Shown piece after piece: positions 5,381 to 40,044 of a stretch of 53,878 nucleotides of DNA. Position numbers and translations under genes: made by a program. Every line of letters starts with the position of its first letter. The stretch's first letter is position 1. This DNA comes from a virus: IMG/VR virus record IMGVR_UViG_3300013232_000048. One strand, 5' to 3'. The notes beneath the pieces were generated by a model, which was given only the letters and a program-made list of their open reading frames with translations, was not told the origin of the DNA and did no database searches.

Positions 5381-5785
5381 GGGGCCGTAATGGTCTCGAT
5401 TAAGTTCTTTGACTATAGAGAGTACGTAGAGGTTGATCATCTGGCCTCTTAAAAAGAAGATCAAAAAATCAACAGCCAACCGTATTAACGCACTGGCCTC
5501 GATCAACTTTGAGTTCGACATGAACGAAGAGTTGGTTACTGAAGAACTGGCGACAGTTTAACTTTGGTAAGTAGGAATAGATTCTCGCTATAAACCTATT
5601 GAGTAAGCAGCGAGGAAAACTGCTGGTAGTTCTAATTACCAGACTGATTCGAAAAGCCAGTATGCTGATCTATGTCCGACAGTTTGCTCATTTGTCATGC
5701 GGACGAATAAAAAAATGAGATAAACGTATAGTGCTCTGTAGAATAAGTATTTAACACCCGGGTTCGATTCCCGGCGGCTCCACCA
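5381..5785 (+). ncRNA. ssrA: tmRNA (ssrA-like), about 405 nt with encoded CCA
   Basis: The 5' end GGGGCCGTAATGGTCTCGAT resembles the E. coli tmRNA 5' end GGGGCUGAUUCUGGAUUCGAC. The 3' end GGGTTCGATTCCCGGCGGCTCCACCA resembles GGGUUCAACUCCCGCCAGCUCCACCA. The 7-bp acceptor GGGGCCG/CGGCTCC has one G-U pair. An internal ORF-like tag ends ...EELATV-TAA. Confidence 0.75.
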
Positions 5786-5835: not shown

Positions 5836-8800
5836 ATGGCTATTTCTCTAAAAGAACAACTCAATCAGGCCCAACAGATTACGGAAGTCATCTATCGTGC
5901 TCCTATATTTGGATATAACTATTATCAGCACGGAAATCATAGTAAAGGTCGAGAGCAAGGAAGACGAATGTTTTATGATTTCTATGCCATGGAATTGCTA
6001 TGGTCTAAGTTGGGTGGTGGCGCTGGGTCTAAAGCTGAACAGAACCGAGTCAACCAAGCTAAAGCAAAAGTTGCAGCGGGAACGGCTACTGACGACGATT
6101 ATTTTTATGCTAACCTAGACCCAAAATATTCGGGCATTTCTGCGTGGCATGGTACTAGTGCTGTAGCGGGTGCGGTGATTCTTCCTCACAAACTTCAAAC
6201 TACGGTTGATGATTTGTACGAACAAGTAACTCGGGCGGTATCCAAAGAATTGCTTGACTATGTTCGGTTTGCTGTTATCCAAGAATTTCAGTATCTTATA
6301 TCATATTCTGATGGATGGTCGAAGTTTCGTCAGGAAATCGTTTCTCATTATAATTCGAGCAGTACAATCACCAAACAACAATTTGATGCCATTGTTAATA
6401 AGCGCATTCCCGAAATGCGACCATATCCATCAGTAGTTAAACGGTTGCTGAAGTATTCCAAGTACTTTAGTTCGATGCATACGATAGATGATAAAGATCC
6501 ATTTGATGTAACTCGTAATTTGTCTGGTAAACCGCCCGTAGGACCCTCCGAACCAGAAGATCCATTTATTGAACCTCAAGGACATGAGGAAGATGAACCT
6601 ATTTCAATGCCGGGTGGTGAAGAACCTCCACCAGAAGGCGAAGAAATTCCAGGCCGTGAGTTTGGTACACAAGGAGATGTTGTTGGAAATATTCCCCCAG
6701 GATGGCCAGATGATAAAGATGAAGATGAAGACGAAGATGAAAAAAATAAGTTGACAGAACAACTATTGACTGAAGAAGAAATCAATCCGAAAAAAATAAA
6801 AAAGGTAATGGCAGCTATGAAAAAAGCCGATATTACTTTGGATGATATCGAGAAGTCGTACAACTATATTCCATGGGGAGGCGGTTATGGTGGTCCAAAA
6901 TGGGGTGCTGGGGCGTTGGCACTTTTGAAACTCATGGAAGCTAGAAAGACGATGGATGTTGAAGGACTTAACTCCATTATTGACCACATTTACGATTTGC
7001 AACATAATACGGGTGCATTATTGAATAAAGGACCGATGTATGTTGAGGATGAAGATTTGAATCGCCGATACAAAATTAGACATATTGCCCGGTTCCTTCC
7101 ACATGTATCTTTGGTAGTCAAAGGAATTATTACTATTTGTTTGAAGTATCTTGAGAATGATCCTGCTCAAGCGAAGCTGGAGATGGAAAAAGAAAAAATT
7201 GTTAGCAGTCCTACAAAAGACATGACTCCCGAACAACAAGCGTTTCTGAAAGAAAAGGGATTCAATTTTGTAAACGCAGGTAGGTGTCGGGCGGCGATTA
7301 ACTTCAAGAATAAAATGGGCGCATCAGTGTCGGGGGTTTATTATCAAATAACAGCACACGCCGATGGTCGTTTTTCTGTTAACGATAACTTGATGGCGGA
7401 TATTCAAGTGTTTAACACGTTTGAAGAAGTTCAGAAATTCATTCCACATTTTGAAGCTGACATTAAGAAAGGTGGAGTGTCTAGTTCTTCTTCTTCTCAT
7501 GCTGCACCGATCAAATCTGAAAAAGAGATTTATAAACAATCTCATTCTCGTATAAAACTTCCTGCGGATAAAGAGACGGATTTGCTTTATCAAGCAAAAA
7601 TGGGTTGGAGAAATAGTCAGAAGTACAAGGCATATTTCCCAGGTAGTAAGCGATTTGAATTGTATGCATTTTCGGATGGAAGTTTTCTGGCCACTTACAG
7701 TGATTCAATGGAATTCAAAGTTTTTACTGATTGGATAAATGCGTTTAATTATTGTAAAACGGAAGGTGCAAAAGCATTGGATTATCCCGATAAAGATGGA
7801 GCACTGGCTGCCATTGGTAAGGGTGGGTCTGGTAATGTTGTATCACCATCGGAACCTGTGGGGGCACCGGTAGTACCATCGAAACCTGTAGTGACCGTGG
7901 ATTACTATTTGGAACCATTAGAGGTACAATCAATTAAACAATTGCTTTCTGCGGCATCATTTACAGCTATTCATGTTATTGGTCAGGATAGTACTGGAAT
8001 GTATAATATTGGTACTTTGCAAAATGGACACTTATTTTCCGTAGGTCATAAACTCAATACTGCTTATGGGAAAACTTACAGAGTGGCGCATAACCTTCCT
8101 GGTGGAGTACCTGAAACTTGGACATTTTCAGACTGGAAACAAACCTATGAGTTTCTTCAGAAAAACCTACAGGGATTGATAAAGAATATACCAATATCTT
8201 CGACCAAATCATTTCTATCTGCCACAACTCCATTAGCATATACACCCACAGGTAATGATCTTCCAGCTTATTCTCCAAGCAAAGCATCTTATGCGATGCA
8301 CACTGGAATACAAACTCCTCCAAAGCATACAATTCGGTTGACTAAAGAAGACGAAGCATTGGTCACAGCGGCTGGGTTTATACCAAAAATGTTAAGTGGC
8401 GATGTTTGGTATATTCATAAGTTTGCCAAAGATACCATCAAGTTTTATCCTAACAATACTGCAAAACTATTGTTTACCAGTCAATCATCCACTGTTCCTG
8501 GAGTCAACTTTAATAATATAGAAAAAATGTTAGTGTGGGTACAGAAAAACTATACGTCAACGACTACTAAATCACCCCTTGAGACTGGAGTTCCCACGGC
8601 GGCTCCTGTAGCAGGTGGTGGAACCCAGTTGGGGTCAATGATGGAAAAGATTCTAATATCTGCTGGTTTTGCTTGGAATGATGCAACAAAGACTTATGAG
8701 GATGCTAATAAACCTGGCGCTCCGAATACTATAGTTATCAAGCCCAATAAAGCTTCGGTTTTAATGGTTAAACCGAATACAGCTTACAATGATGAAGTAC

Positions 8801-17107: not shown

Positions 17108-18202
17108 ATGATAGATTACACAAAAAGATCCCTGGAGGGACTATGGGTTGGAGATTGCATTGGAAATCTTGGTCAACTTTACTTCGTTCACGATATTCTT
17201 AAAGCCCTTGAAGGCGGATTAGCCAAGTTCGGCGGGCAACTGGATAAGTTTCAAAAAGGATTCGTTTATTCCGATGATACGGAAGAAGCCATCGTGCTAT
17301 ACAATCACTTGATGAAGTCTGGAGGTCGAACTCCATTCATTGATCAAGATATGTTGGCCTTAGAGTTTGCTGCTCGTTATATGGAGCGTGACCCCGATGG
17401 AGAAATCTATGGGTATGGTCTAAACACCCGCAAAGTCCTCCGTGACATTTATGAAGGAGTGCCGTGGCGAGAAGCCAATAAGATTATCAAAAAAAGTGAA
17501 GGTATGCCTTCCCATATTGATAGTTTGGTAAATAGCTTATCCCAAGGTAAGGGTTTCAAAGATGCAATGGGCGATGTTAATACTGCTCTACAAAAACAAC
17601 GAACTGACCAGATGAATAAAGTCAAAGAAGGTTCCTGTGGCAATGGTTCGGCAATGAGAGTTGCACCGCTGGGAGCATTTCTTGGTGGTATGGTTGATCT
17701 TCAACCTGATAGAATGATTGCCGAAGCAGCACTTCAAGCGCAAGTTACACATTGTCATCCCGAAGGTATTGCTGGGTCTATTGCTATTACTACGGCAGCA
17801 TTAGTTGTTGCGAGTACGCATCAATCTGCCGAACCATTTATGGCTAGTAAAGGGTTATTACAAAAAATCATTCAGTATGTTCCAGAGAGTGAAGTTAGAA
17901 ACGGAATCAAAAAAGCAATGGATCTTCCGGTTGAAACTCCCATCGGAAAGGCAATAGAAGTCCTTGGCAATGGAACTCACGTTACATGTCAGGATACAGT
18001 GCCTCTTTGTTGTTGGTTGATTTCCAAACACTTACAGAAATATTCTCCCGAAGAAACATATGAGAAAGCAATTATTGAAACTTCAATGGCGTTCGGAGAT
18101 GTAGATACTAACTGCGCTATCGTGGGTGGTGTTGTAGGCATTGTCAGTCCTCCACCTGACAAATGGAAGAAGTTTTGCAATCCAATGGAAGGAGTAATAT
18201 GA
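17108..18202 (+). CDS. ADP-ribosylglycohydrolase family protein (ARH/DraG-like)
   Basis: The N-terminal motif SLEGLWVGDCIGN, the central GSCGNGSAMRVAPLG and the C-terminal GDVDTNCAIVGGVVG match the conserved ARH family motifs (metal-binding Asp/Thr). Confidence 0.8.
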   Translation: MIDYTKRSLEGLWVGDCIGNLGQLYFVHDILKALEGGLAKFGGQLDKFQKGFVYSDDTEEAIVLYNHLMKSGGRTPFIDQDMLALEFAARYMERDPDGEIYGYGLNTRKVLRDIYEGVPWREANKIIKKSEGMPSHIDSLVNSLSQGKGFKDAMGDVNTALQKQRTDQMNKVKEGSCGNGSAMRVAPLGAFLGGMVDLQPDRMIAEAALQAQVTHCHPEGIAGSIAITTAALVVASTHQSAEPFMASKGLLQKIIQYVPESEVRNGIKKAMDLPVETPIGKAIEVLGNGTHVTCQDTVPLCCWLISKHLQKYSPEETYEKAIIETSMAFGDVDTNCAIVGGVVGIVSPPPDKWKKFCNPMEGVI

Positions 18203-20801: not shown

Positions 20802-21425
20802 ATGGGTTATTTTAATATGAACTACACTTGTCATAGCGGAGGATGTCCCGGCGCAGATATGGCGTGGGAGCGATTGGGTAAAAGATATGGCGTCAAAACC
20901 ATCGCTTACTCATTTCACAACCATGTTCACGAGGGGGAGAACCCAAAGATTTTGACCGTGGACGAACTAGCAGAGGGATGGACACACGTTAAGATGGCAG
21001 ACAGGACGTTGAAGAAGAACGTGGAGAGTCTTGATTCGCCGTATATGAGAAACCTCCTTTGTCGGAACTGGTTTCAGGTCAAAAACTCCGATGTGGTGAT
21101 CGCCATAGGTAAACTTATAGACCAACATACGGTTGGCGGAGGTACTGGTTGGGCAGTCCAAATGGCTATTGACGCTGACAAACCAGTGTTTCTATTCCTT
21201 CAAGACGCTATGGGAGGCGGTTGGTTTAGGTATATGCCCATCGTGGGGTTTGAATGGAATCGTGGTGAGATACCAAGACTGACAGAGAATTTTGCGGGTA
21301 TTGGTACTCGGGCATTGAACCAGTACGGTGAAGCAGAAATAGACAGAGTATATCGTCTAACTTGTATTGACGATTACAATGAAAAATTGAAAGGTTCGGG
21401 ATTTAGAAAGATGTATCCACAATGA
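20802..21425 (+). CDS. SLOG-superfamily (DprA/Smf/LOG-like) Rossmann-fold nucleotide-binding protein
   Basis: HSGGCPGADMAWE resembles the SGGA(R/K)GID motif. VVIAIGKLIDQHTVGGGTGWAVQMAIDADKPVFLF resembles the second DprA/LOG motif (GGGxG ... vfavp). Confidence 0.55.
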   Translation: MGYFNMNYTCHSGGCPGADMAWERLGKRYGVKTIAYSFHNHVHEGENPKILTVDELAEGWTHVKMADRTLKKNVESLDSPYMRNLLCRNWFQVKNSDVVIAIGKLIDQHTVGGGTGWAVQMAIDADKPVFLFLQDAMGGGWFRYMPIVGFEWNRGEIPRLTENFAGIGTRALNQYGEAEIDRVYRLTCIDDYNEKLKGSGFRKMYPQ

Positions 21426-22156
21426 AAGCATTCGTAAAAGTTAGAAAAGGAAACTTCCCCGACGTAAATTATTTTATGGCGTGGAAAGGATTTGATGAAA
21501 TCGGTTATGAAGTCATCAAGTTTGAAGAAGACCAAGAAAGTACCATTGATGTCACCGAGGATACTCCCGTGTTTGCGGGCGTGGGTTCCTGTCGCAAAAT
21601 CATCAAGCGAGTGTGGGGATGGGACTATACAGGTATCAATCCTTACCCCGACGAATTGATGCCATATATGCATCGTAAAGTGGAGCGTAAGAAATGGATA
21701 GATGCTCGGCAAGAAGCTTTGGAAGGACATAAGTTCATCAAACCTGTAATTCAAAAACAGTTTACGGGTGTGGTATTAAGTACGCTTTTAGACACCATCC
21801 GCACAGGCAAGATAGATGAAAACCATGAGGTATATGTAGTCGAACCTGTTGAGTTTATCGCAGAATATCGAGTATATGTCCATGAACATGAAATCGTTGG
21901 CGTAAAACATTACTTTGGAGATTGGTATAGTGCTCCGGCCAAAAGAGTTGTTGATGATATGATTGAGGCATATAAACCGTCAGCACCAATAGCATATGGG
22001 TTAGATGTTGGTATTATCAAAGACAATCAATATCATTTAGCTCCGGTAGAAATCAATGACGGTATTTGTCTTGGAAACTATGGGCTGGATCAGATACATT
22101 ATGCCGAAATGATTGCGGCAAGATGGCAAGAGCTTACAACCAATGGAAAAGTATAA
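21422..22156 (+). CDS. ATP-grasp-like enzyme
   Basis: 244 aa. HKFIKPVIQKQFTGVV followed by alternating hydrophobic strands and EINDGIC/LGNYGL resembles ATP-grasp ligases. No exact motif is certain. Confidence 0.4.
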   Translation: MKAFVKVRKGNFPDVNYFMAWKGFDEIGYEVIKFEEDQESTIDVTEDTPVFAGVGSCRKIIKRVWGWDYTGINPYPDELMPYMHRKVERKKWIDARQEALEGHKFIKPVIQKQFTGVVLSTLLDTIRTGKIDENHEVYVVEPVEFIAEYRVYVHEHEIVGVKHYFGDWYSAPAKRVVDDMIEAYKPSAPIAYGLDVGIIKDNQYHLAPVEINDGICLGNYGLDQIHYAEMIAARWQELTTNGKV

Positions 22157-25501: not shown

Positions 25502-26242
25502 ATGAGAATAAATATGGAAGGACAACGATTTGGGCGTTTGTTAGTTGAAAAATTCAAAGGACAATCAAAAGATAGAAAGGCATTGTGGGAATGTTTGTGT
25601 GATTGTGGTAAGACTACAATCGTAAGAGGAAAACATTTACGGCGTGGCCAAATTGTAAGTTGTGGATGTTATCGTCGTGAAAAAGTGACGGAAGCACTTT
25701 TCAAAAACTTGACGGGAAAGCAATTTGGAAGATTAGTTGCTACGAAAATAGATAAAAATGTTCGTGGATGTTATTTTTGGGAATGCCTTTGTGATTGCGG
25801 TAAAAAAGTAATAGTTGCTGGCAATAAACTTACTTTTGGGCATACCCGAAGCTGTGGATGTCTTGCAAGAGAGATGGCATCTAAACATTTTAAGGCATTG
25901 TGTAAAATCCAAAAGGGAAAAAATCATCCACGATGGAATCCAAATATAACTAATGAAGAAAGACGAGAACGAATAGAACGAAAACGACAAGAATTTCGAG
26001 AATTAAAATGGAGAAATATGGTTTATGTTAGAGATAAATATACCTGTCAAAAATGTGGAGATTGTCGTGGAGGAAATCTTAATGCTCATCATATTTTCTC
26101 ATGGAAAGATTATCGAAAGTTGCGGTATGTAGAATCTAATGGGATAACTTTTTGTGAGGAATGTCATAAAAAGTTTCACGAAATAAATGGTTATGGAAAT
26201 AACACAAGAAAACAACTTACAGATTACATGCAAATTGTGTAA
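25502..26242 (+). CDS. HNH homing endonuclease with duplicated Cys4 zinc modules
   Basis: Two repeats, CLCDCGK...SCGC, followed by YTCQKCGDC...NAHHIFSW...N...FCEECHKKFH, the HNH motif. Confidence 0.75.
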   Translation: MRINMEGQRFGRLLVEKFKGQSKDRKALWECLCDCGKTTIVRGKHLRRGQIVSCGCYRREKVTEALFKNLTGKQFGRLVATKIDKNVRGCYFWECLCDCGKKVIVAGNKLTFGHTRSCGCLAREMASKHFKALCKIQKGKNHPRWNPNITNEERRERIERKRQEFRELKWRNMVYVRDKYTCQKCGDCRGGNLNAHHIFSWKDYRKLRYVESNGITFCEECHKKFHEINGYGNNTRKQLTDYMQIV

Positions 26243-28061: not shown

Positions 28062-28149
28062 GGTCGTAGTAATGGCTGATTCGTTCAATAGTAGGACGGG
28101 ATCCTCATAAGGTCAAAACACTGGGGCAGAACCAGTATCAGCTACCAAT

Positions 28150-29707: not shown

Positions 29708-29781
29708 GCCGGGTTAGTATAAAAGTATTACAGTAGTTTTGTAAACTTCAAAAGTCGGGGCAGTACCGACACTCGGCTCCA
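29708..29781 (+). tRNA. tRNA-Thr(UGU)-like with non-canonical T-loop GGCAGTA
   Basis: Acceptor GCCGGGT/ACTCGGC. The anticodon arm GTAGT-TTTGTAA-ACTTC has one mismatch. T-arm GTCGG-GGCAGTA-CCGAC. It is a paralog of the tRNA at 29847, with a compensatory swap in the first pair of the anticodon stem. Confidence 0.5.
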
Positions 29782-29846: not shown

Positions 29847-29920
29847 GCCAGATTGATGTAAAAGTAGCCTGCAAGTTTCGTAAACTTGATGCGTCGGGGC
29901 AGTACCGATATCTGGCTCCA
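29847..29920 (+). tRNA. tRNA-Thr(CGU)-like with non-canonical T-loop GGCAGTA
   Basis: Acceptor GCCAGAT/ATCTGGC. Anticodon arm CAAGT-TTCGTAA-ACTTG. T-arm GTCGG-GGCAGTA-CCGAT. Confidence 0.55.
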
Positions 29921-30954: not shown

Positions 30955-31401
30955 ATGTATAGTGCAACAAGCATGTTGGCAAAAGCTAAAGACAATAATA
31001 TTCTTCCTGTAAGAAGAAACAATTTCTATTATAGGGAGGTTTATCTTAAAAGTGATCACTGGAAACTTTTGAGAGAAGAAAAACTTAATAGAAATCCTAC
31101 TTGTCAACAATGTGGGTCTTCGGTTTGTTTAGATGTTCATCACAAAGACTATCGGGGACTTTATGATGTTAGGTTAAATGATTTACAAACGTTATGTCGA
31201 AAATGTCATAATAAAAAGCACAAGCGAAAGGACCATAAAAAACCCAAGAGAAACTTGATTGAGCGTATAAAATGGCACGCCGAAGGATATGGAAATCCAG
31301 TCAAATTAACTGCACGCAACAAAGAAAGACAAGAAGTGTTCGACAAGATGGTTAATTGGAGATGTAGAGACATAAACACTTACATTTCTATTCATTATTA
31401 A
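30955..31401 (+). CDS. HNH homing endonuclease
   Basis: CQQCGSSVCLDVHHKDYRG...ND..TLCRKCHNKKHK. Confidence 0.75.
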   Translation: MYSATSMLAKAKDNNILPVRRNNFYYREVYLKSDHWKLLREEKLNRNPTCQQCGSSVCLDVHHKDYRGLYDVRLNDLQTLCRKCHNKKHKRKDHKKPKRNLIERIKWHAEGYGNPVKLTARNKERQEVFDKMVNWRCRDINTYISIHY

Positions 31402-32686: not shown

Positions 32687-32760
32687 CGGGGTATGGCGTA
32701 ATAGTAGCGTGCGTGTTTTGGGGACATGAGGCGACTGAGCATAACAGTCTATCCCGACCA
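32687..32760 (+). tRNA. tRNA-Pro(UGG); T-loop AGCATAA
   Basis: Acceptor CGGGGTA/TATCCCG. Anticodon arm CGTGT-TTTGGGG-ACATG (G37). T-arm GACTG-AGCATAA-CAGTC. Confidence 0.55.
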
Positions 32761-33836: not shown

Positions 33837-33911
33837 GGCCCATTCGTCTAACAGCTAGGACAATAGATTCTCAATCTATAAACACCGGGGCAGCACCGGT
33901 ATGGGCTACCA
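33837..33911 (+). tRNA. tRNA-Glu(CUC)-like; T-loop GGCAGCA
   Basis: Acceptor GGCCCAT/ATGGGCT. Anticodon arm ATAGA-TTCTCAA-TCTAT. T-arm ACCGG-GGCAGCA-CCGGT. Confidence 0.5.
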
Positions 33912-35046: not shown

Positions 35047-35120
35047 TCTCGGGTCATATAACGGTATTATGGGTGACTGTTACTCACTTCATGGGGGTTC
35101 AATTCCTTCTCCGAGAGCCA
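35047..35120 (+). tRNA. tRNA-Asn(GUU)
   Basis: Acceptor TCTCGGG/TCCGAGA with G73. Anticodon arm GGTGA-CTGTTAC-TCACT. T-arm GGGGG-TTCAATT-CCTTC with G-U pairs. Confidence 0.55.
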
Positions 35121-35794: not shown

Positions 35795-35990
35795 TCTCAA
35801 CACGGAAGAGTGCATGTTTTACATTCATGCGGTTGGGAGTTCGATTCTCCCCTATCCCACCACTTTACGGGACAAAAAATCATATCTTGTCCAAGATGTT
35901 AACTGCATATAAATCTTGTCCCGCCACTTTATGCCACTGAAACCTCATGAGTCATCCCGTGTCATGAACGGGATATGGTGGCACCACTTT
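35795..35990 (+). repeat. three tandem minihelix-CCA units (CCACTTTAYGSS repeated)
   Basis: The hairpins GGGAG-TTCGATT-CTCCC, CGGGACAA...TTGTCCCG and ATCCCGT...ACGGGAT are each followed by CCACTTTA(C/T)G(G/C)(G/C). They resemble T-arm/acceptor remnants of tRNAs. Confidence 0.45.
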
Positions 35991-36069: not shown

Positions 36070-36528
36070 ATGAACTGTAAAAAATGTGATAAGCCGTTTT
36101 CTATTTGAGTATGGATAGATGGAAAGCAAAAAAATCTTCAACGTAGAAAATATTGTCTCGAATGTTCTCCGTTTGGAAAACATAATACTCGTAACCTTAC
36201 AAAGGGTCCATCGCCTCCGAAAATTTGTACGGTCTGTGGCAATCCTTTTTTTCAAAAAGGAACGTGTTGCGGATCATGTAGGGTAACTAAATGGAGGCAA
36301 GACAAAAAACGACGACTTGTTGAATATAAAGGTGGCAAATGTCAATCGTGTGGATATGTTAGGTGTATTGATAATCTGACATTTCATCATCTCGATTCGT
36401 CTAAGAAAGATTTCATTATAAGCGGTACAAGTAAAGCATTTGAAACTTTGAAAGCAGAAACCGATAAATGCGTTCTATTGTGTCGCAATTGTCATGGAGA
36501 AGTCCATGCAGGAATGTTGACAGTTTAA
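36070..36528 (+). pseudogene. HNH endonuclease gene interrupted by an in-frame TGA at codon 13
   Basis: MNCKKCDKPFSI-TGA-VWIDGKQ...KGGKCQSCGY...FHHLDSSKKDF...LLCRNCHGEVH. The full HNH motif is intact downstream, there is no alternative start after the TGA, and TGA is used as a stop elsewhere. Confidence 0.5.
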
Positions 36529-36529
36529 T

Positions 36530-36675
36530 TCTCCTCTAGCTCAATGGTAGAGCGTTCGGCTGTGCGGTCTGATATAGTCTATACAAGGTTGTCCCGAGGG
36601 ACGATGCAGAGTGCAAAACTCTAAGACCGGAAGTTAACCGAATGGTTGCACGTTCAAGTCGTGCGGGGAGAGCCA
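36530..36675 (+). tRNA. tRNA (probably Asn-GUU) with about 71-nt insertion in the anticodon loop
   Basis: Acceptor TCTCCTC/GGGGAGA, D-arm TAGCTCAATGGTAGAGC and T-arm GCACG-TTCAAGT-CGTGC. The anticodon stem TTCGG...CCGAA encloses CT[...71 nt...]GTTAA. Removing the insert leaves CTGTTAA. Confidence 0.5.
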
Positions 36676-36682
36676 ACTTTAC

Positions 36683-36715
36683 TTGCAAGTTTAACATTCA
36701 ATTGCAAGTTTAACT
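36683..36715. repeat. direct repeat TTGCAAGTTTAAC x2
   Basis: TTGCAAGTTTAACattcaaTTGCAAGTTTAAC. Confidence 0.7.
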
Positions 36716-36974
36716 TTACGGGCGGCGTATGAAGTTCTAATCGTGTCATCAATTGATATAGCTAGTTGATTGATTGTAAAAAATCCGTACCGAATCATAA
36801 CTACGAGTTAACCCGCCCACCAATTTGCACCAGTTCAGGATTGTATGGCTTCCAGCCTAGCACAGGCGAAGTAACGAAGTCGGGGTTCTGAGTGCTCTGG
36901 TTGCAATATTTTGACACATAGACGTTACATGGTTGACATTAAATTGTAATAGAGGTTTGATATATTATGATGTA

Positions 36975-37154
36975 TGAAAACATGTAAACATTTTAGATAC
37001 CAAATACCAGAAGATGAAGCAAATGCACTGCGAATCTTAGATGAAGAACATTGCATTGTATGTGATATTCGTCCACGTCATATATTTTGTGAAAATCGTG
37101 GGCAATATGTTTTCATTCCGAAACTTTTCAACACCGAAAAACAACGATGATCAT
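36975..37154 (+). CDS. small Cys-containing protein (59 aa)
   Basis: MKTCKHFRYQ...HCIVCD...HIFCEN, preceded by a TTGACA...-10 promoter-like sequence at 36934. Confidence 0.3.
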
Positions 37155-37269
37155 CGGGTTCCCGCAAGGGACGCATGTTGAAAGAGGGATGCGTTAGCCT
37201 CTCAAAAAAATCGCTTCAATTTATCATACCCTAGCCGCCTCTTAACAATGCGTAATTGCCGGGGTGTTT

Positions 37270-37344
37270 CAGGTGCGTGTTGTAATAGTAGCATCTTTCG
37301 CTGTGAACGAAACGGCATGGGAGCGTAACCCATCCACCTGACCA
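37270..37344 (+). tRNA. tRNA with anticodon GUG but A73 and no G-1 (His-like anticodon with a non-His acceptor); T-loop AGCGTAA
   Basis: Acceptor CAGGTGC/CCACCTG with one mismatch. Anticodon arm TTTCG-CTGTGAA-CGAAA. T-arm ATGGG-AGCGTAA-CCCAT. Confidence 0.5.
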
Positions 37345-37602
37345 ATTTCTCCAAACATTACCACCCATAAACAGATAGTCTATAGCTCCCTCTGTATTGG
37401 TTAATTGGTGGACTCCCCTGAAAGTCGCTCTTTCTTCTTGGAGTGGTGCGGAGAATTCACTTTCTCAGTGACGGAGCCAACGTCCAGTGAAGCGATAAAG
37501 TTGATCACAATTCATGAACTTGTTTCTAGCTGTCGTAACGATGCCTAAATTGGCGCAAGCCATCGTGGGTAGTAGTTTGGGCATGACTGAGATTTACAAA
37601 AT

Positions 37603-37679
37603 GCACCCGTGGTGATAATGGAATCATTCCACGCTTCGAACGTGGAGAACAACAAGTTCGATCCTTGTCGGGTGTACCA
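37603..37679 (+). tRNA. tRNA-Arg(UCG)
   Basis: Acceptor GCACCCG/CGGGTGT. D-arm GGTGATAATGGAATCAT. Anticodon arm CCACG-CTTCGAA-CGTGG. T-arm ACAAG-TTCGATC-CTTGT. Confidence 0.65.
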
Positions 37680-37743
37680 CTTTAGCTTGAAAATAGTAGC
37701 GGTATTCTTGTGGTTTATACTACTTCAGTTATATGTATGATAT

Positions 37744-38325
37744 ATGCAAAAAGAAATTTTGGAAAAATTAGTAAGCAGTGGATTATCTACAACTGAAATA
37801 GGAAAGCGAGTAAATTTAAGTCAATCCGGTATTCGACACTGGTTGAAAAAATATAATCTCAAAACTGTTCCACGTCAAAGTCTGGAAAATAGATTTAAGT
37901 ATTCTGATTCCGTATTATTAGATATATGGAACCGCAGTGATTCTATAAATCAATTTTTATTGGCTTTAGGAGTAGGAAACAGTGGTGGGGCATGGTATCA
38001 TTATAAAAGGAGATTGGTAACATTGGGAATTGATTTGTCCGATTGTACTCTTAATGGTAGAAGTCGTGGAGGGCTTACAACAGCAAAGTTTAGAAACAAA
38101 GAAACCATTAAAAAAAGAATTAGGCTTAAAAGATTGACATTGAAAAAGTCAATGGATTTAGAAAACGTAATATATGCTTGTATCAAGTGTTCTTTATCTG
38201 AGTGGAAAGGAAAGAAATTAAAGCTTCATATTCATCATAAGAACCATGATAAAACAGATAACAGGATAGATAATTTGGAATATTTATGTCCCAATTGTCA
38301 CAGCATAACACATTATACAGAATGA
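37744..38325 (+). CDS. HNH homing endonuclease with N-terminal HTH
   Basis: LSTTEIGKRVNLSQSGIRHWL (HTH) ... CIKCSLSEW...HIHHKNHDKTDNRIDNLEYLCPNCHSITH. Confidence 0.8.
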   Translation: MQKEILEKLVSSGLSTTEIGKRVNLSQSGIRHWLKKYNLKTVPRQSLENRFKYSDSVLLDIWNRSDSINQFLLALGVGNSGGAWYHYKRRLVTLGIDLSDCTLNGRSRGGLTTAKFRNKETIKKRIRLKRLTLKKSMDLENVIYACIKCSLSEWKGKKLKLHIHHKNHDKTDNRIDNLEYLCPNCHSITHYTE

Positions 38326-38332
38326 TTTGTAT

Positions 38333-38407
38333 CTGGATGTAACATAGAAGTTTATGTGCTGCTCTGAAAAAGCAGAAATGAAGGAGCGTTACCTTCCATC
38401 CAGGCCA
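38333..38407 (+). tRNA. tRNA-Phe(GAA); T-loop AGCGTTA
   Basis: Acceptor CTGGATG/CATCCAG. D-stem ACAT/ATGT. Anticodon arm CTGCT-CTGAAAA-AGCAG. T-arm GAAGG-AGCGTTA-CCTTC. Confidence 0.6.
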
Positions 38408-38413
38408 ATTTAT

Positions 38414-38489
38414 GGGAATGTAGTGTATAGTAACACGCTTACTAACAGTTCGAGAAGCGGAGTATAACTTACCTCCGTCATTTCCACCA
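38414..38489 (+). tRNA. tRNA-like gene, anticodon unresolved
   Basis: Acceptor GGGAATG/CATTTCC-A-CCA with D-stem GTGT/ACAC, but the anticodon and T arms do not fold canonically. Confidence 0.3.
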
Positions 38490-38493
38490 TTTT

Positions 38494-38568
38494 TGGCGAA
38501 TGCTGAAGTACAAGGCATTTGGAGAAGTCCCTAAACAAGGATGAGGGGTTCGAATCCCCAGTTCGCCA
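38494..38568 (+). tRNA. tRNA-like gene, anticodon unresolved; no encoded CCA
   Basis: Acceptor TGGCGAA/TTCGCCA is perfect. T-arm AGGGG-TTCGAAT-CCCCA. The possible anticodon loop is 8 nt. Confidence 0.35.
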
Positions 38569-38578
38569 AATTCAATTT

Positions 38579-38712
38579 AGATGCGTACAGCTAGAAAACC
38601 TCTTATGTAAACCTGCGTGTCGGTGTGTGCAAATCCACCCCTTCGGACTCGACCCGAAGGTAGCTCAGTTAGTAGAGCAGCGGGAGCCGCAAGGCAAGAA
38701 AAAAACGCATCT
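38579..38712 (+). repeat. IR element family member b (AGATGCGT ... ACGCATCT) with an internal tRNA-half-like insert
   Basis: The arms show covariation relative to member a (GCGT/ACGC versus ACAG/CTGT). The insert contains CCTTCGG-ACTCGAC-CCGAAGG followed by the D-arm-like TAGCTCAGTTAGTAGAGC. Confidence 0.55.
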
Positions 38713-38723
38713 AGCTCTTTAAT

Positions 38724-38798
38724 GGTCCTGTGGTGCAAGAGAAGCACAGAAGTCTTTCAAGCTTCAGATCGTGAGTGCAATACTCCGCAGGACTACCA
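38724..38798 (+). tRNA. tRNA-Glu(UUC); T-loop GTGCAAT-like
   Basis: Acceptor GGTCCTG/CAGGACT. Anticodon arm GAAGT-CTTTCAA-GCTTC. The T-arm is poorly paired (GAGTGCAATACTC). Confidence 0.55.
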
Positions 38799-39036
38799 AT
38801 TTGGAAAAGTTAGGAGGTTGGCTTAGAGGCAGCAATCCTTAAAAGAGTGATCGAGTGCAAATGTTTATTCTTTTTCGCCCTGTGGTGACATGGGGATAGA
38901 CGCACACCTACCCGCAAGTATCGCATCGTATCTCGTCAGAGGTACAGGCAGAGCAGCAATCAATTCTACATTCGAGAGATAGAGAAAGCGGCGGTCTGAG
39001 GTCTTTGGCGTAGCAGCACACTATCTTTTCCAATTT

Positions 39037-39106
39037 GCCGAGATAGTTTAATAGCAAAACCACTGGTGACAGTGAATGATGGTTCATTTCCAATCTCTCG
39101 GCTCCA
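39037..39106 (+). tRNA. short (70-nt) tRNA-like gene, probably defective
   Basis: Acceptor GCCGAGA/TCTCGGC-T-CCA is perfect, with D-stem GTTT/AAAC. The putative anticodon hairpin has only a 4-nt loop. Confidence 0.3.
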
Positions 39107-39110
39107 ATTT

Positions 39111-39215
39111 AGATACAGACAGCAAGAAAACCTCTTAATCCAAACCAAAGGTGTGGGTTCGATTCCCATGTATAGTGTAATGGCAGCACACAGGTCAAAA
39201 GAAAAAACTGTATCT
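39111..39215 (+). repeat. IR element family member c (AGATACAG ... CTGTATCT) with a T-arm/acceptor-like insert
   Basis: Same arms as member a. The about 45-nt insert GGTGTGGGTTCGATTCCCATGTATAGTGTAATGGCAGCACACAGG looks like a T-arm followed by an acceptor 5' strand and D-arm, which is a permuted order. Confidence 0.5.
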
Positions 39216-39220
39216 AGTTC

Positions 39221-39295
39221 GCATCCATAAGTCAATTGGCAGACTGCAAGCCTTTTAAGCTTGCGATCTCGGATCGTCCCCGAGTGGATGCACCA
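39221..39295 (+). tRNA. tRNA-Lys(UUU); T-loop ATCGTCC
   Basis: Acceptor GCATCCA/TGGATGC. D-stem AGTC/GACT. Anticodon arm CAAGC-CTTTTAA-GCTTG. T-arm CTCGG-ATCGTCC-CCGAG. Confidence 0.65.
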
Positions 39296-39299
39296 ATTT

Positions 39300-39407
39300 A
39301 AGATGCCCGTTATCTACAGCAACTCCCAAAAGGAAAAGATCAATGCATATGAGCAATGACCCAGCTTGGTTCAAACCCGAGCACCCTCGCAAGAGGTTGG
39401 GCATCTT
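39300..39407 (+). repeat. IR element family member e (AAGATGCCC ... GGGCATCTT) with a T-arm-like insert
   Basis: The 9-bp arms covary relative to the other members. The interior has ACAGCAACTCCCAAAAGG and CTTGG-TTCAAAC-CCGAG. Confidence 0.5.
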
Positions 39408-39422
39408 GATTTTAGTTATTCT

Positions 39423-39508
39423 GCTACTGTGTCGTAATTGGTAAACGAGCGAGCCTGAGAAGCTCGTGCCTAAAAAGCGTGGGAGTTCGAGTCTCCCCAG
39501 TAGCACCA
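39423..39508 (+). tRNA. tRNA-Leu(GAG), class II
   Basis: Acceptor GCTACTG/CAGTAGC. Anticodon arm CGAGC-CTGAGAA-GCTCG. 13-nt variable arm. T-arm GGGAG-TTCGAGT-CTCCC. Confidence 0.65.
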
Positions 39509-39514
39509 GTTTTG

Positions 39515-39628
39515 GGCCAGTGGTGAAAATAGTTAAACACGCCGATGACCCCGGTTGAATGAGAACGATGAAGGGAGATTTCATTTAAGTCTTATTCCAA
39601 TGTAGGTGTAATTCCTGCCTGGCCCACC
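39515..39628 (+). tRNA. tRNA-like gene (114 nt) with about 40-nt extra internal sequence
   Basis: Acceptor GGGCCAG/CTGGCCC-A-CCA is perfect. D-arm GGTGAAAATAG. T-arm GTAGG-TGTAATT-CCTGC. The middle region is too long for a canonical anticodon and variable arm. Confidence 0.4.
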
Positions 39629-39689
39629 ACTTTAAGACCTCATATATCAGTCGCTAACCCAGTTAATGACCGATATACGAGACATTATT

Positions 39690-39767
39690 CAGGGTATAGT
39701 GTAGTTTGGCCAACACGTCAGTCTGGGGGACTGAAGACCGGCAGTTCGAATCTGCCTATCCTGACCA
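39690..39767 (+). tRNA. tRNA-Pro(GGG)
   Basis: Acceptor CAGGGTA/TATCCTG. D-stem GTGT/ACAC. Anticodon arm TCAGT-CTGGGGG-ACTGA. T-arm GGCAG-TTCGAAT-CTGCC. Confidence 0.65.
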
Positions 39768-39771
39768 ATTT

Positions 39772-39886
39772 GGGTGTATGGTGTAATGGATAACATACCA
39801 AAGTGAAACCGTAGCAGCCTAGGAACCAACCACGTTAGTAGCGATTCGCTTTTGCGAAGACACGGGTTCGATTCCCGTTACATCCA
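39772..39886 (+). tRNA. tRNA-like gene (115 nt) with about 40-nt extra internal sequence; no encoded CCA
   Basis: Acceptor GGGTGTA/TACATCC, D-stem GTGT/ATAC, T-arm ACGGG-TTCGATT-CCCGT. There are 62 nt between the D- and T-arms. Confidence 0.4.
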
Positions 39887-39893
39887 CCGATTT

Positions 39894-39957
39894 AAGATGC
39901 ATACAGCAACCAAAAATCTAATTCACACCTATTCTTGTGAAAAAGAAAATGCATCTT
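39894..39957 (+). repeat. IR element family member d (AAGATGCAT ... ATGCATCTT)
   Basis: The arms covary (GCAT/ATGC). The interior ACAGCAACCAAAAATC resembles member a. Confidence 0.55.
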
Positions 39958-39967
39958 GTTACTTTGT

Positions 39968-40044
39968 GGGGTCGAGGAGGAACAGCTAGACTCGCTTGCC
40001 TGTCACGCAAGAGACAGCCGGGGCAGCACCGGTCGATCCCGCCA
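39968..40044 (+). tRNA. tRNA-Asp(GUC), second copy; T-loop GGCAGCA
   Basis: Acceptor GGGGTCG/CGATCCC with G73. Anticodon arm CTTGC-CTGTCAC-GCAAG. T-arm GCCGG-GGCAGCA-CCGGT. Confidence 0.6.

Follow-up and report, generated by a model that had tools for sequence, protein, structure and literature searches.

A conserved structured intervening sequence in the anticodon loop of a phage tRNA-Asn(GUU) gene and two further tRNA-derived units of the same array

The virus record IMGVR_UViG_3300013232_000048 of IMG/VR, a stretch of 53,878 nucleotides (nt) that is called the window here, contains three unusual units, C1, C2, and C3, among its transfer RNA (tRNA) genes. In our best reading, C1 (36530-36675, + strand) is a functional-type phage tRNA-Asn(GUU) gene whose insert belongs to a family of small structured intervening sequences (51-71 nt, possibly also 30 nt) that had not been described before. 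A preliminary description of this DNA had reported three odd tRNA-like genes and treated them as one class. The three units do exist, all on the + strand of a phage tRNA array, but they are three different things. Neither C2 nor C3 is an interrupted tRNA; both are RNAs derived from tRNAs, with an enlarged middle. The suggestion of a new kind of small tRNA intron or insertion is supported for C1, where the insert belongs to a conserved mobile family with covarying helices, and fails for C2, where the extra nucleotides form a variable arm.

When introns were allowed, ARAGORN called C1 as tRNA-Asn(gtt) with a 75-nt mature tRNA and a 71-nt insert. The 5' exon (36530..36561, +) runs through U33 and contains the 5' strand of the acceptor, the D arm GCTC/GAGC, the anticodon stem strand TTCGG, and CT. 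The intervening sequence (36562..36632, +) was delimited by ARAGORN, by the predicted fold, and by homologues at the same site in the loci L090, L097, and L084-L102. The 3' exon (36633..36675, +) consists of GTTAA, CCGAA, the variable loop, the T arm GCACG-TTCAAGT-CGTGC, the 3' strand of the acceptor, G73, and CCA. The ARAGORN call bears out the earlier statement that the stem TTCGG/CCGAA surrounds an insert whose removal restores the loop CTGTTAA. Without the insert, C1 folds as a cloverleaf with a 7-base-pair (bp) acceptor, D, anticodon, and T stems, and the 7-nt loop CUGUUAA, as expected of a tRNA. The exons carry U1:A72 and G73, as in bacterial tRNA-Asn. The allele-specific exons would read GGCUGUUAACCG when joined, and the predicted spliced 40-mer of the contigs with a 51-nt insert is GGTAGAGCATGCGGCTGTTAACCGCAGGGTTGGGGGTTCGA. 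Because GT flanks the insert on both sides, its boundaries are ambiguous and may lie at 33/34, 34/35, or 35/36 (a shift of +1 or +2).

The exons of eight interrupted genes were compared. In their common cloverleaf 94.6% of the cells were paired, with 100% in the acceptor and anticodon stems, and slid controls gave 42-50%. Ten exon pairs changed on both sides, a number that none of 500 shuffles reached. Comparison of these genes thus indicates that the exons of the interrupted genes are under selection for the tRNA fold. The preliminary description had considered a decaying pseudogene for C1; with a perfect cloverleaf in the exons and covarying homologues, this is unsupported.

In the minimum free energy fold of C1, the exons formed a clean cloverleaf and the insert formed a three-helix junction closed by CGGTCT/AGACCG. 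These paired ends had been noticed before, and they appear in the predicted fold as the closing helix P1 (5' strand 36565..36570, + strand, paired with the 3' strand 36624..36629, +), after which come GAA and G34. P2 is a hairpin (GTCC-CGAG-GGAC, 36591..36602, +) that is optional and missing from the 51-nt type. P3 is the hairpin AGAGT-GCAAA-ACTCT (36608..36622, +), and its core GAGUGCAAAWCUC resembles a T arm of the unusual 'UGCAA' type, which also forms the T arm of several tRNA-like units in these phages. Folded alone, the insert gave z = -2.3, and 2 of 200 shuffles folded as well. From 5' to 3', the members of the family consist of GUG, the 5' strand of P1, (U)GAUAWAGU, the optional hairpin with a YGAG loop (long type only), the GAGUGCAAAWCUC hairpin, 1-3 nt, the 3' strand of P1, and RAR before G34. 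The stretch AUAWAGU is conserved.

The helices of the insert vary in sequence and keep their pairing. P1 is CGGUCU/AGACCG in the window, GGGUCU/AGACCC in L090 and L097, GGCC/GGCC in L084, GGCU/GGCU in L095, and GUAUGA/UCAUAC in L050. Its outermost pair is C-G in the window and G-C in L090 and L097. In P2, the GUCC/GGAC of the window is replaced by CCUUC/GAAGG in L090 and L097; the stem differs and the YGAG loop is kept. The GAG/CUC stem of P3 and most of its loop are invariant across all inserts of 51, 67, and 71 nt. RNAalifold recovered the varying helices from the three long inserts, with four pairs changed on both sides. We infer that the RNA fold of the insert is under selection; a mere DNA spacer would not need the covariation of P1 and P2.

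Homologous inserts of 51, 67, and 71 nt, together with one of 30 nt, were found at the same tRNA-Asn site in more than 20 other phage contigs. The protein of the HNH homing-endonuclease gene beside C1 was used as a query against IMG/VR and gave 62 loci, of which L022, L033, L034, and L050 have a tRNA-Asn interrupted at the same site. L022 (the same as L097) has an insert of 67 nt and an HNH protein with 86% identity to the window copy; the corresponding values are 51 nt and 63% for L033 and L034, and 30 nt and 49% for L050. A scan with the pattern CGGCTGTG...GAGTGCAAANCTC returned 19 IMG/VR loci representing 9 distinct genes, and ARAGORN called every one as a tRNA-Asn with an insert of 51, 67, or 71 nt. 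Found in this way, L090 has a 71-nt insert and an HNH gene directly upstream (61% identity to the window copy). Of the first 120 IMG/VR matches to the shared 5' exon, 92 had an intact anticodon loop and 18 an interrupted one. The pattern GGTCTGATANAGTCTANA added only chance matches in coding DNA. In 185,579 representative cellular genomes there was one true match, a 2.9-kilobase (kb) phage-like contig binned with a Crocinitomicaceae metagenome-assembled genome; the other 16 of the 17 matches were due to chance. The window itself holds no second copy of the insert.

All of the 23 inserts that bear the motif sit in tRNA-Asn, and the element always interrupts the anticodon loop at U33 or immediately 3' of it. 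A full-text literature search found no description of small inserts inside phage tRNA genes.

The phages with a 51-nt insert in tRNA-Asn also have a tRNA-Phe(GAA) gene that an invariant insert of 30 nt, ACTATGATGGTAAATGACACCGTAAAAGTG, interrupts after C32. The gene lies at 872-974 of L229, and the identical sequence occurs in 11 loci, for example at 3473-3575 of L033 (Rfam tRNA, 40.8 bits). Like the insert of tRNA-Asn, this one ends in a 3-bp hairpin, whose 7-nt loop is NGNAAAA. When a minimum intron length is imposed, ARAGORN joins adjacent tRNAs and predicts too much, and only the recurrent Asn and Phe cases were kept.

Comparison of alleles shows that the element is gained or lost precisely. 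The intact tRNA-Asn genes of L156 and L167 match the interrupted allele of L101 at 75/75 exon positions, and the sole difference is the exact 51 nt; other exon types also have intact counterparts. L084 and L086 share identical 200-nt flanks and inserts alike at 50/51 positions, with exons alike at only 66/75. L086 and L095 have exons alike at 74/75 positions, and their flanks and inserts differ. L017, whose vault-like protein shows 76% identity to that of the window, has an uninterrupted tRNA-Asn of type A in a similar neighbourhood (Asn, Asn, Phe, Phe, Arg-tcg). The element is thus found in several different allele backgrounds. We believe that the C1 insert is very probably a conserved, site-specific, mobile element.

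The HNH gene beside C1 (36070..36528, + strand) ends 1 nt before the tRNA gene. Codon 13 has changed from CGA to an in-frame TGA (36106-36108), and the orthologues in L022 and L023 are open there (CGA or AAA). Because of this stop codon, the window copy is probably inactive. In the 62 loci of the family, the gene typically ends 0-10 nt before a tRNA gene, most often tRNA-Asn. Distinct contexts of Asn genes that share the anticodon arm CGGCU...UUAACCG were then tabulated. An HNH gene lay directly upstream of 6 interrupted alleles and was absent upstream of 11, and the corresponding numbers for intact alleles were 0 and 57, although relatedness inflates this contingency table, which may hold perhaps 3-4 independent lineages. 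The HNH gene thus stands beside interrupted alleles and never beside intact alleles with the same target, which is the arrangement of collaborative homing. The intact tRNA-Asn genes that adjoin this HNH have other anticodon stems.

An intact second tRNA-Asn(GUU), here called type B, had been noted at 35047 and is confirmed by ARAGORN at 35047..35120 (+); its D arm and anticodon stem differ from those of C1. In most relatives, its orthologue lies 9 nt upstream of the interrupted gene. The loci without HNH keep this 9-nt spacer to the upstream type-B gene, the same as in intact lineages, which suggests that the insert came first and the HNH gene later. Three other HNH endonuclease genes lie in the tRNA array of the window (25502-26242, 30955-31401, and 37744-38325).

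The C1 insert was compared with the known classes of introns and ribozymes. Rfam scans of 35.7-40.9 kb of the window at E values up to 5, and of L229 as a relative with the 51-nt insert at E values up to 10, found no intron or ribozyme family. At 51-71 nt, the inserts are too short for the P3-P9 core of group I introns, which have a length of about 200 nt or more, and there was no Intron_gpI match; the earlier remark that the inserts are too short for this class is correct for C1. The splice rules of group I introns do not fit either, as U(-1) and a terminal G do not coincide at any junction. The exon has a final U at 33/34 and 35/36, where the insert ends in A or U, and both end in G at 34/35. 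By inspection, no 3-4-3 bulge-helix-bulge (two 3-nt bulges and a 4-bp exon-intron helix) can be drawn, and the predicted fold of C1 instead places an internal loop of 5 x 8 nt between the anticodon stem and P1. For group II and group III introns, the window insert starts with GUGCG and those of relatives with GUGGG; no domain V or VI and no Rfam match was found. Permissive Rfam scans gave no match to hammerhead, twister, pistol, hatchet, or HDV-like ribozymes. Theta ribozymes have been described 3' of phage tRNAs (PMC10879173). They may be missing from Rfam, and when HDV-like and theta folds were examined by hand, P1 closed the element and left no room for P2 and P4.

Other candidates were also rejected. 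A miniature element of the IS200/IS605 type, a repeat, or a transposon does not agree with a single copy in the window and with motif-bearing inserts that all sit in tRNA-Asn. The inserts of 67 and 71 nt could accommodate a kink-turn or box C/D-like motif (CGG-UCU-GA...GA-CCG), and those of 51 and 30 nt could not. Excision by RNase P and RNase Z as a nested mini-tRNA would leave 3-6 extra nt at the predicted cuts, and an internal promoter in the insert would have no -35 element.

In this study, we lean, by a small degree, towards the view that the C1 insert is an intron-like element that is excised and leaves a working tRNA-Asn. Selection on the fold of the insert, the perfect exons, and the exact preservation of both halves of the anticodon loop together favour excision from a precursor. 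The wider proposal is more tentative, and we would give it slightly less than an even chance. It holds that the insert represents a new intron class, that it is removed from phage pre-tRNA-Asn (and, for the 30-nt relative, pre-tRNA-Phe) by a mechanism other than those of group I, group II, and bulge-helix-bulge introns, and that the element is mobile and exploited by the HNH enzyme. Removal might be performed by a new small ribozyme built from the closing stem and the T-loop-like hairpin, or by an endonuclease and a ligase of the phage or the host. The free-standing HNH gene, inserted directly 5' of the tRNA, would exploit the element. The probable target of its enzyme is the CGGCTGTTAACCG anticodon arm of intact alleles, or a site close to it, and interrupted alleles would be immune. 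The HNH gene could then persist only beside interrupted alleles, as in collaborative homing, and the copy in the window would later have gained its nonsense codon.

Several points weigh against excision. It is deduced from comparison of sequences, and 100% exon identity to intact alleles also fits a very recent insertion into live genes. No single junction restores GUU in all members: L097 needs 34/35 or 35/36 and otherwise reads AUU, and L050 needs 33/34. L097 also has an extra C in the D stem, a hint of decay in some copies. Among the 20 open reading frames (ORFs) of the window that were scanned in Pfam, none matched an RNA ligase, RtcB, or a splicing endonuclease. Nearly every phage with an interrupted gene has an intact type-B tRNA-Asn too, so the interrupted copy could be dispensable. 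To these comes the relatedness that inflates the HNH table.

Much of this would suit a passenger at the level of DNA, or an immunity spacer, which destroys the target of the HNH enzyme, spreads by co-conversion, and stays in the RNA; the gene would be dead, and the type-B tRNA-Asn would do the decoding. The restriction of the HNH gene to interrupted alleles, the almost constant company of type B, exons identical to intact alleles as recent conversion predicts, the two defects in L097, and the inconsistent splice junction all agree with this explanation. It does not account for the covariation of P1 and P2, or for a hairpin and motifs kept across the diverged 51- and 71-nt types. Moreover, 11 of the 17 interrupted contexts have no HNH gene and an undisturbed 9-nt spacer, and interrupted genes with differing exons keep perfect pairing. 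We regard a passenger as unlikely, while it is the most serious of the alternatives to an excised element.

Another explanation is that the unspliced C1 transcript is itself functional, as a tRNA-shaped non-coding RNA with a three-helix module. As a decoy or sponge, it might draw away an anticodon nuclease or a defence protein that binds tRNA, or it might be a scaffold like the tRNA-like domains of tmRNA (transfer-messenger RNA) and Y RNA. The array is rich in conserved non-decoding tRNA-like RNAs (C2, YrlA-like units, and long units in relatives), and the insert contains a T-arm-like hairpin. However, a decoy has no need of the exact CU...GUUAA flanks that re-form the Asn loop, and precise presence or absence in identical alleles resembles an intron or mobile element and not an evolved new gene. 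This explanation is improbable in our view.

A descent of the insert from a group I intron that has lost its catalytic core is more improbable still. Group I introns occur at 35/36 in tRNA-Asn of Patescibacteria (PMC13011429), so both the gene and the region of the anticodon loop match, and a homing endonuclease is nearby. Against this, there was no group I match even at E values up to 5-10, the junctions break the splice rules given above, and the forms of 51-71 nt are conserved and covary in more than 20 contigs, unlike a decaying remnant.

C2 and C3 lie further along the array, and each had been described with about 40 extra nt between the D and T arms. For C2, the extra nucleotides are present, but the bounds of 39515-39628 are corrected to 39514..39629 (+), and the expansion is a variable arm. 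The acceptor stem is GGGCCAG/CTGGCCC (7/7 pairs), followed by A73 and CCA. A 4-bp stem with the loop AUGACCC lies at 39541-39555 (+), the branched extra arm of 41 nt (46 nt with its unpaired flanks) at 39557-39597 (+), and the T arm with the loop UGUAAUU at 39602-39618 (+). The D stem has 3 bp, the D loop is AAAAUAGUUAAA, and G18G19 is lacking. The perfect or near-perfect acceptors reported earlier for the three units were found, and the good D and T arms hold for C1; those of C2 depart from this with the 3-bp D stem and the T loop UGUAAUU. The fold of C2 had z = -2.9. ARAGORN did not call C2, and no Rfam tRNA match was obtained at E values up to 5.

A homologue of C2 lies at 5326-5441 of L013, a related phage (116 nt, 82% identity over 72 nt), and has the same predicted fold. 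In a comparison by eye, both partners had changed in approximately 10 of 34 pairs: one pair of the 4-bp stem (from C-G to G-C), five of the outer and one of the inner stem of the extra arm, two of the T stem, and one of the acceptor. One pair was broken. The loop AUGACCC and the junction ACGAUG are invariant between the two. A covariance model scored these two at 134.9 and 117.7 bits and everything else, ordinary tRNAs, at 35.8 bits or less; the top further matches include several long-arm tRNAs of 83-90 nt. The ends of C2 align with genes of the tRNA-Leu(UAG) type. Like a class II tRNA, C2 has a long variable arm, A73, and an acceptor and D arm like those of tRNA-Leu. It departs from this class in the lack of G18G19, in a T loop of UGUAAUU or UGAGAGU in place of T54-Ψ55-C56, and in the 4-bp stem without a purine at 37.

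Judged from the compensatory changes, C2 is a conserved tRNA-like RNA derived from tRNA-Leu, with a giant variable arm and an altered elbow; that the comparison comprises two sequences only counts against this. The earlier alternatives of an intron carrier or a decaying gene are both set aside by the compensatory pairs with L013. With its altered elbow and giant variable arm, C2 is probably no decoder, and the acceptor stem, A73, and CCA suggest that it is probably processed like a tRNA.

C3 has an enlarged middle as described, but its bounds of 39772-39886 are corrected to 39772..39889 (+). The acceptor GGGTGTA/TACATCC contains G3:U70 and is followed by A73 and then by CCG, not CCA. The D and T arms are canonical, and the middle of about 65-66 nt has no recognisable anticodon arm and is no more structured than shuffles (z = -0.6). 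The acceptor is of the alanine type, and the T arm is similar to those of tRNA-Ala genes. Only the 3' part (the T arm and the 3' strand of the acceptor) gave short blastn matches to other loci, and no homologue of C3 was found in 1.8 megabases of related arrays. The intron reading is poor, as the version offered by ARAGORN, a Val tRNA with a 24-nt intron, has a poor anticodon stem. As a mini-tmRNA, C3 scored 27.1 bits against the Rfam gathering score of 47 and has no pseudoknots. A possible frame ending in ...SETVAA-stop is short and was seen post hoc. With some uncertainty, C3 appears to be a shell derived from tRNA-Ala. It may be a tRNA-like RNA or a pseudogene, and nothing decides between the two. 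That C1, C2, and C3 are all decaying tRNA pseudogenes of a large, loosely constrained phage genome has hardly any probability: the unstructured middle and missing homologue of C3, the broken HNH gene beside C1, and the abundance of degenerate-looking units nearby would agree with it, and it is refuted for C1 and C2 by the compensatory changes of their homologues and, in C1, by the retention of every canonical tRNA feature in the exons.

The window resembles part of a huge-phage genome, with a tmRNA, an ORF of 3220 amino acids, and a tRNA array on the + strand from approximately 23 to 53 kb, in which all three units lie. With default settings, ARAGORN called 33 tRNAs and none of C1, C2, and C3, and it called C1 only when introns were allowed. 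Rfam gave 36 tRNA matches and the tmRNA; among the three units, it called only 39772-39886 (42.2 bits). A scan for an acceptor, a T arm, and CCA found 70 units on the + strand and 31 on the - strand, an enrichment on the array-bearing strand. The tmRNA (5381-5785, 102 bits in Rfam) is missed by ARAGORN, and its likely tag frame ends in ...NEELVTEELATV-stop instead of the usual Ala-Ala; the end of the tag, ...ELATV, differs from that of the possible frame in C3.

A major-vault-like protein of 851 amino acids is encoded at 41668-44223. Its nearest phage relatives in GenBank, with 40% identity, belong to the uncultured phages LR756501 (735 kb) and LR756500 (462 kb), neither of which has tRNAs around the homologous gene. 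Among cellular organisms, Riflebacteria and other bacteria have relatives of it with about 47% identity. A scan of metagenomes with the 851-amino-acid protein mostly returned contigs that end too near the gene. An ADP-ribosylglycohydrolase (17108-18202) and an R2K-type ATP-grasp protein (21422-22156) are encoded too. Megablast of 35-41 kb of the window against GenBank phages gave no match, the look-up of two window ORFs by exact protein gave no record, and IMG/VR gave zero matches to the exact 26-nt junction pattern or to the C2 pattern.

Many other units of the array are also unusual. Cloverleaf genes of 74-77 nt with the non-canonical T loops GGCAGNA, AGCGTNA, and TGCAAGT are numerous and often missed by ARAGORN (28074-28147, 29708-29781, 29847-29920, 33837-33911, 39968-40044, 32687-32760, 47977-48050, and others), and the same T-loop types were found again in related phages. 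Short hairpins or tRNA-like units that end in NCCA and are not tRNAs lie at 35869-35926, 35933-35986, 36720-36822, 38412-38487 (which has G3:U70), and 39037-39106. The motif [AC]TTT comes after nearly every unit of the array. Four units closed by AGATGC...GCATCT (38577-38716, 39107-39218, 39297-39410, and 39888-39960) consist of a T-arm-like hairpin, a closed acceptor-like hairpin, and a D arm in this order. This order resembles the circular permutation of a tRNA-like domain that is known from YrlA or Y RNA, and the Rfam score for YrlA is only 19.3 bits. Homologues of the unit at 38577-38716 are present in L090 and L023, and in 10 pairs both partners have changed. A 229-nt unit with the closing stem GGAAAAG/CTTTTCC lies at 38804-39032, and 38812-38881 gives a weak match to positions 1095-1146 of bacterial 23S rRNA (17.6 bits, E = 0.027).

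In relatives, a conserved RNA of about 240 nt lies 3' of tRNA-Pro(ggg) and has a promoter of its own, similar to TTGACA / TATGGT. It was found in L008 (1046-1320), L012 (approximately 6640-6930), L013 (7896-8131), L016 (from 2231), and L017 (8601-8848), and it is absent from the equivalent place of the window. Its 3' end has a T arm, an acceptor-like stem, and UCCA, and it matches no Rfam family. The relatives also contain units of 99-194 nt with a 7-bp acceptor, a T arm, NCCA, and large internal expansions, some with two T-arm-like hairpins (L012 3125-3223; L013 2999-3154 and 5446-5572; L016 1068-1182 and 1189-1303; L017 6540-6733; L090 6259-6416 and 8813-8919).

If the C1 insert is indeed excised, it would point to a new minimal ribozyme or to an unrecognised pathway of RNA cleavage and ligation in bacteria or their viruses. 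A transcript of 126-146 nt would be a compact and tractable case for studying how an endonuclease and an intervening sequence cooperate. Standard tRNA annotation misses such genes, which distorts the tRNA inventories of large phages and conclusions on their codon usage. C2 and the other tRNA-shaped RNAs nearby show that the 'tRNA arrays' of huge phages encode a far broader range of tRNA-derived RNAs than decoders alone.

C2 and C3 may be compared with class II tRNAs and with the stable tRNA-like RNAs that phages encode in their tRNA clusters, for example species 1 and 2 RNAs of T4. They share an acceptor stem with CCA, tRNA-like ends, and a place in the same array as tRNAs. C2 is unlike them in its 46-nt branched variable arm, the absence of G18G19, the non-TΨC loop, and a 4-bp 'anticodon' stem with C at 37.

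To our knowledge, all tRNA introns reported so far from bacteria and phages belong to group I, apart from a few of group II. The C1 insert is like the group I introns of tRNA genes in its place in the anticodon loop of a bacterial-type tRNA, with tRNA-Asn among the hosts, in its presence/absence polymorphism, and in its association with homing endonucleases. It differs in length (51-71 nt against about 200 nt or more), in the absence of a P3-P9 core, and in the endonuclease gene, which lies outside the tRNA gene. The bulge-helix-bulge introns of archaea and eukaryotes, which need protein enzymes, are likewise small inserts of tens of nt in or near the anticodon loop, whereas the context here is of bacterial type (encoded CCA, tmRNA, and bacterial tRNA identity elements).

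SegB of T4 and the F-Tfl enzymes of T5 are reportedly free-standing endonucleases in phage tRNA clusters. SegB is also named in PMC13096335. As with these enzymes, the homing endonuclease genes of the window lie within a phage tRNA array and are presumably aimed at the tRNA genes of competitors; in the SegB and F-Tfl systems, immunity comes from sequence divergence, and no structured tRNA insert is reported. Collaborative homing is said to have been described by Zeng, Bonocora, and Shub in 2009 for cyanophage psbA and F-CphI, where a free-standing endonuclease lies beside an intron without an endonuclease gene of its own. The present case departs from that of psbA in an element that does not belong to group I, in a tRNA gene as the target, and in a cleavage specificity that is a prediction. 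As in collaborative homing, the endonuclease gene lies beside the interrupted gene and occurs only with interrupted alleles, and interrupted alleles without HNH exist as well.

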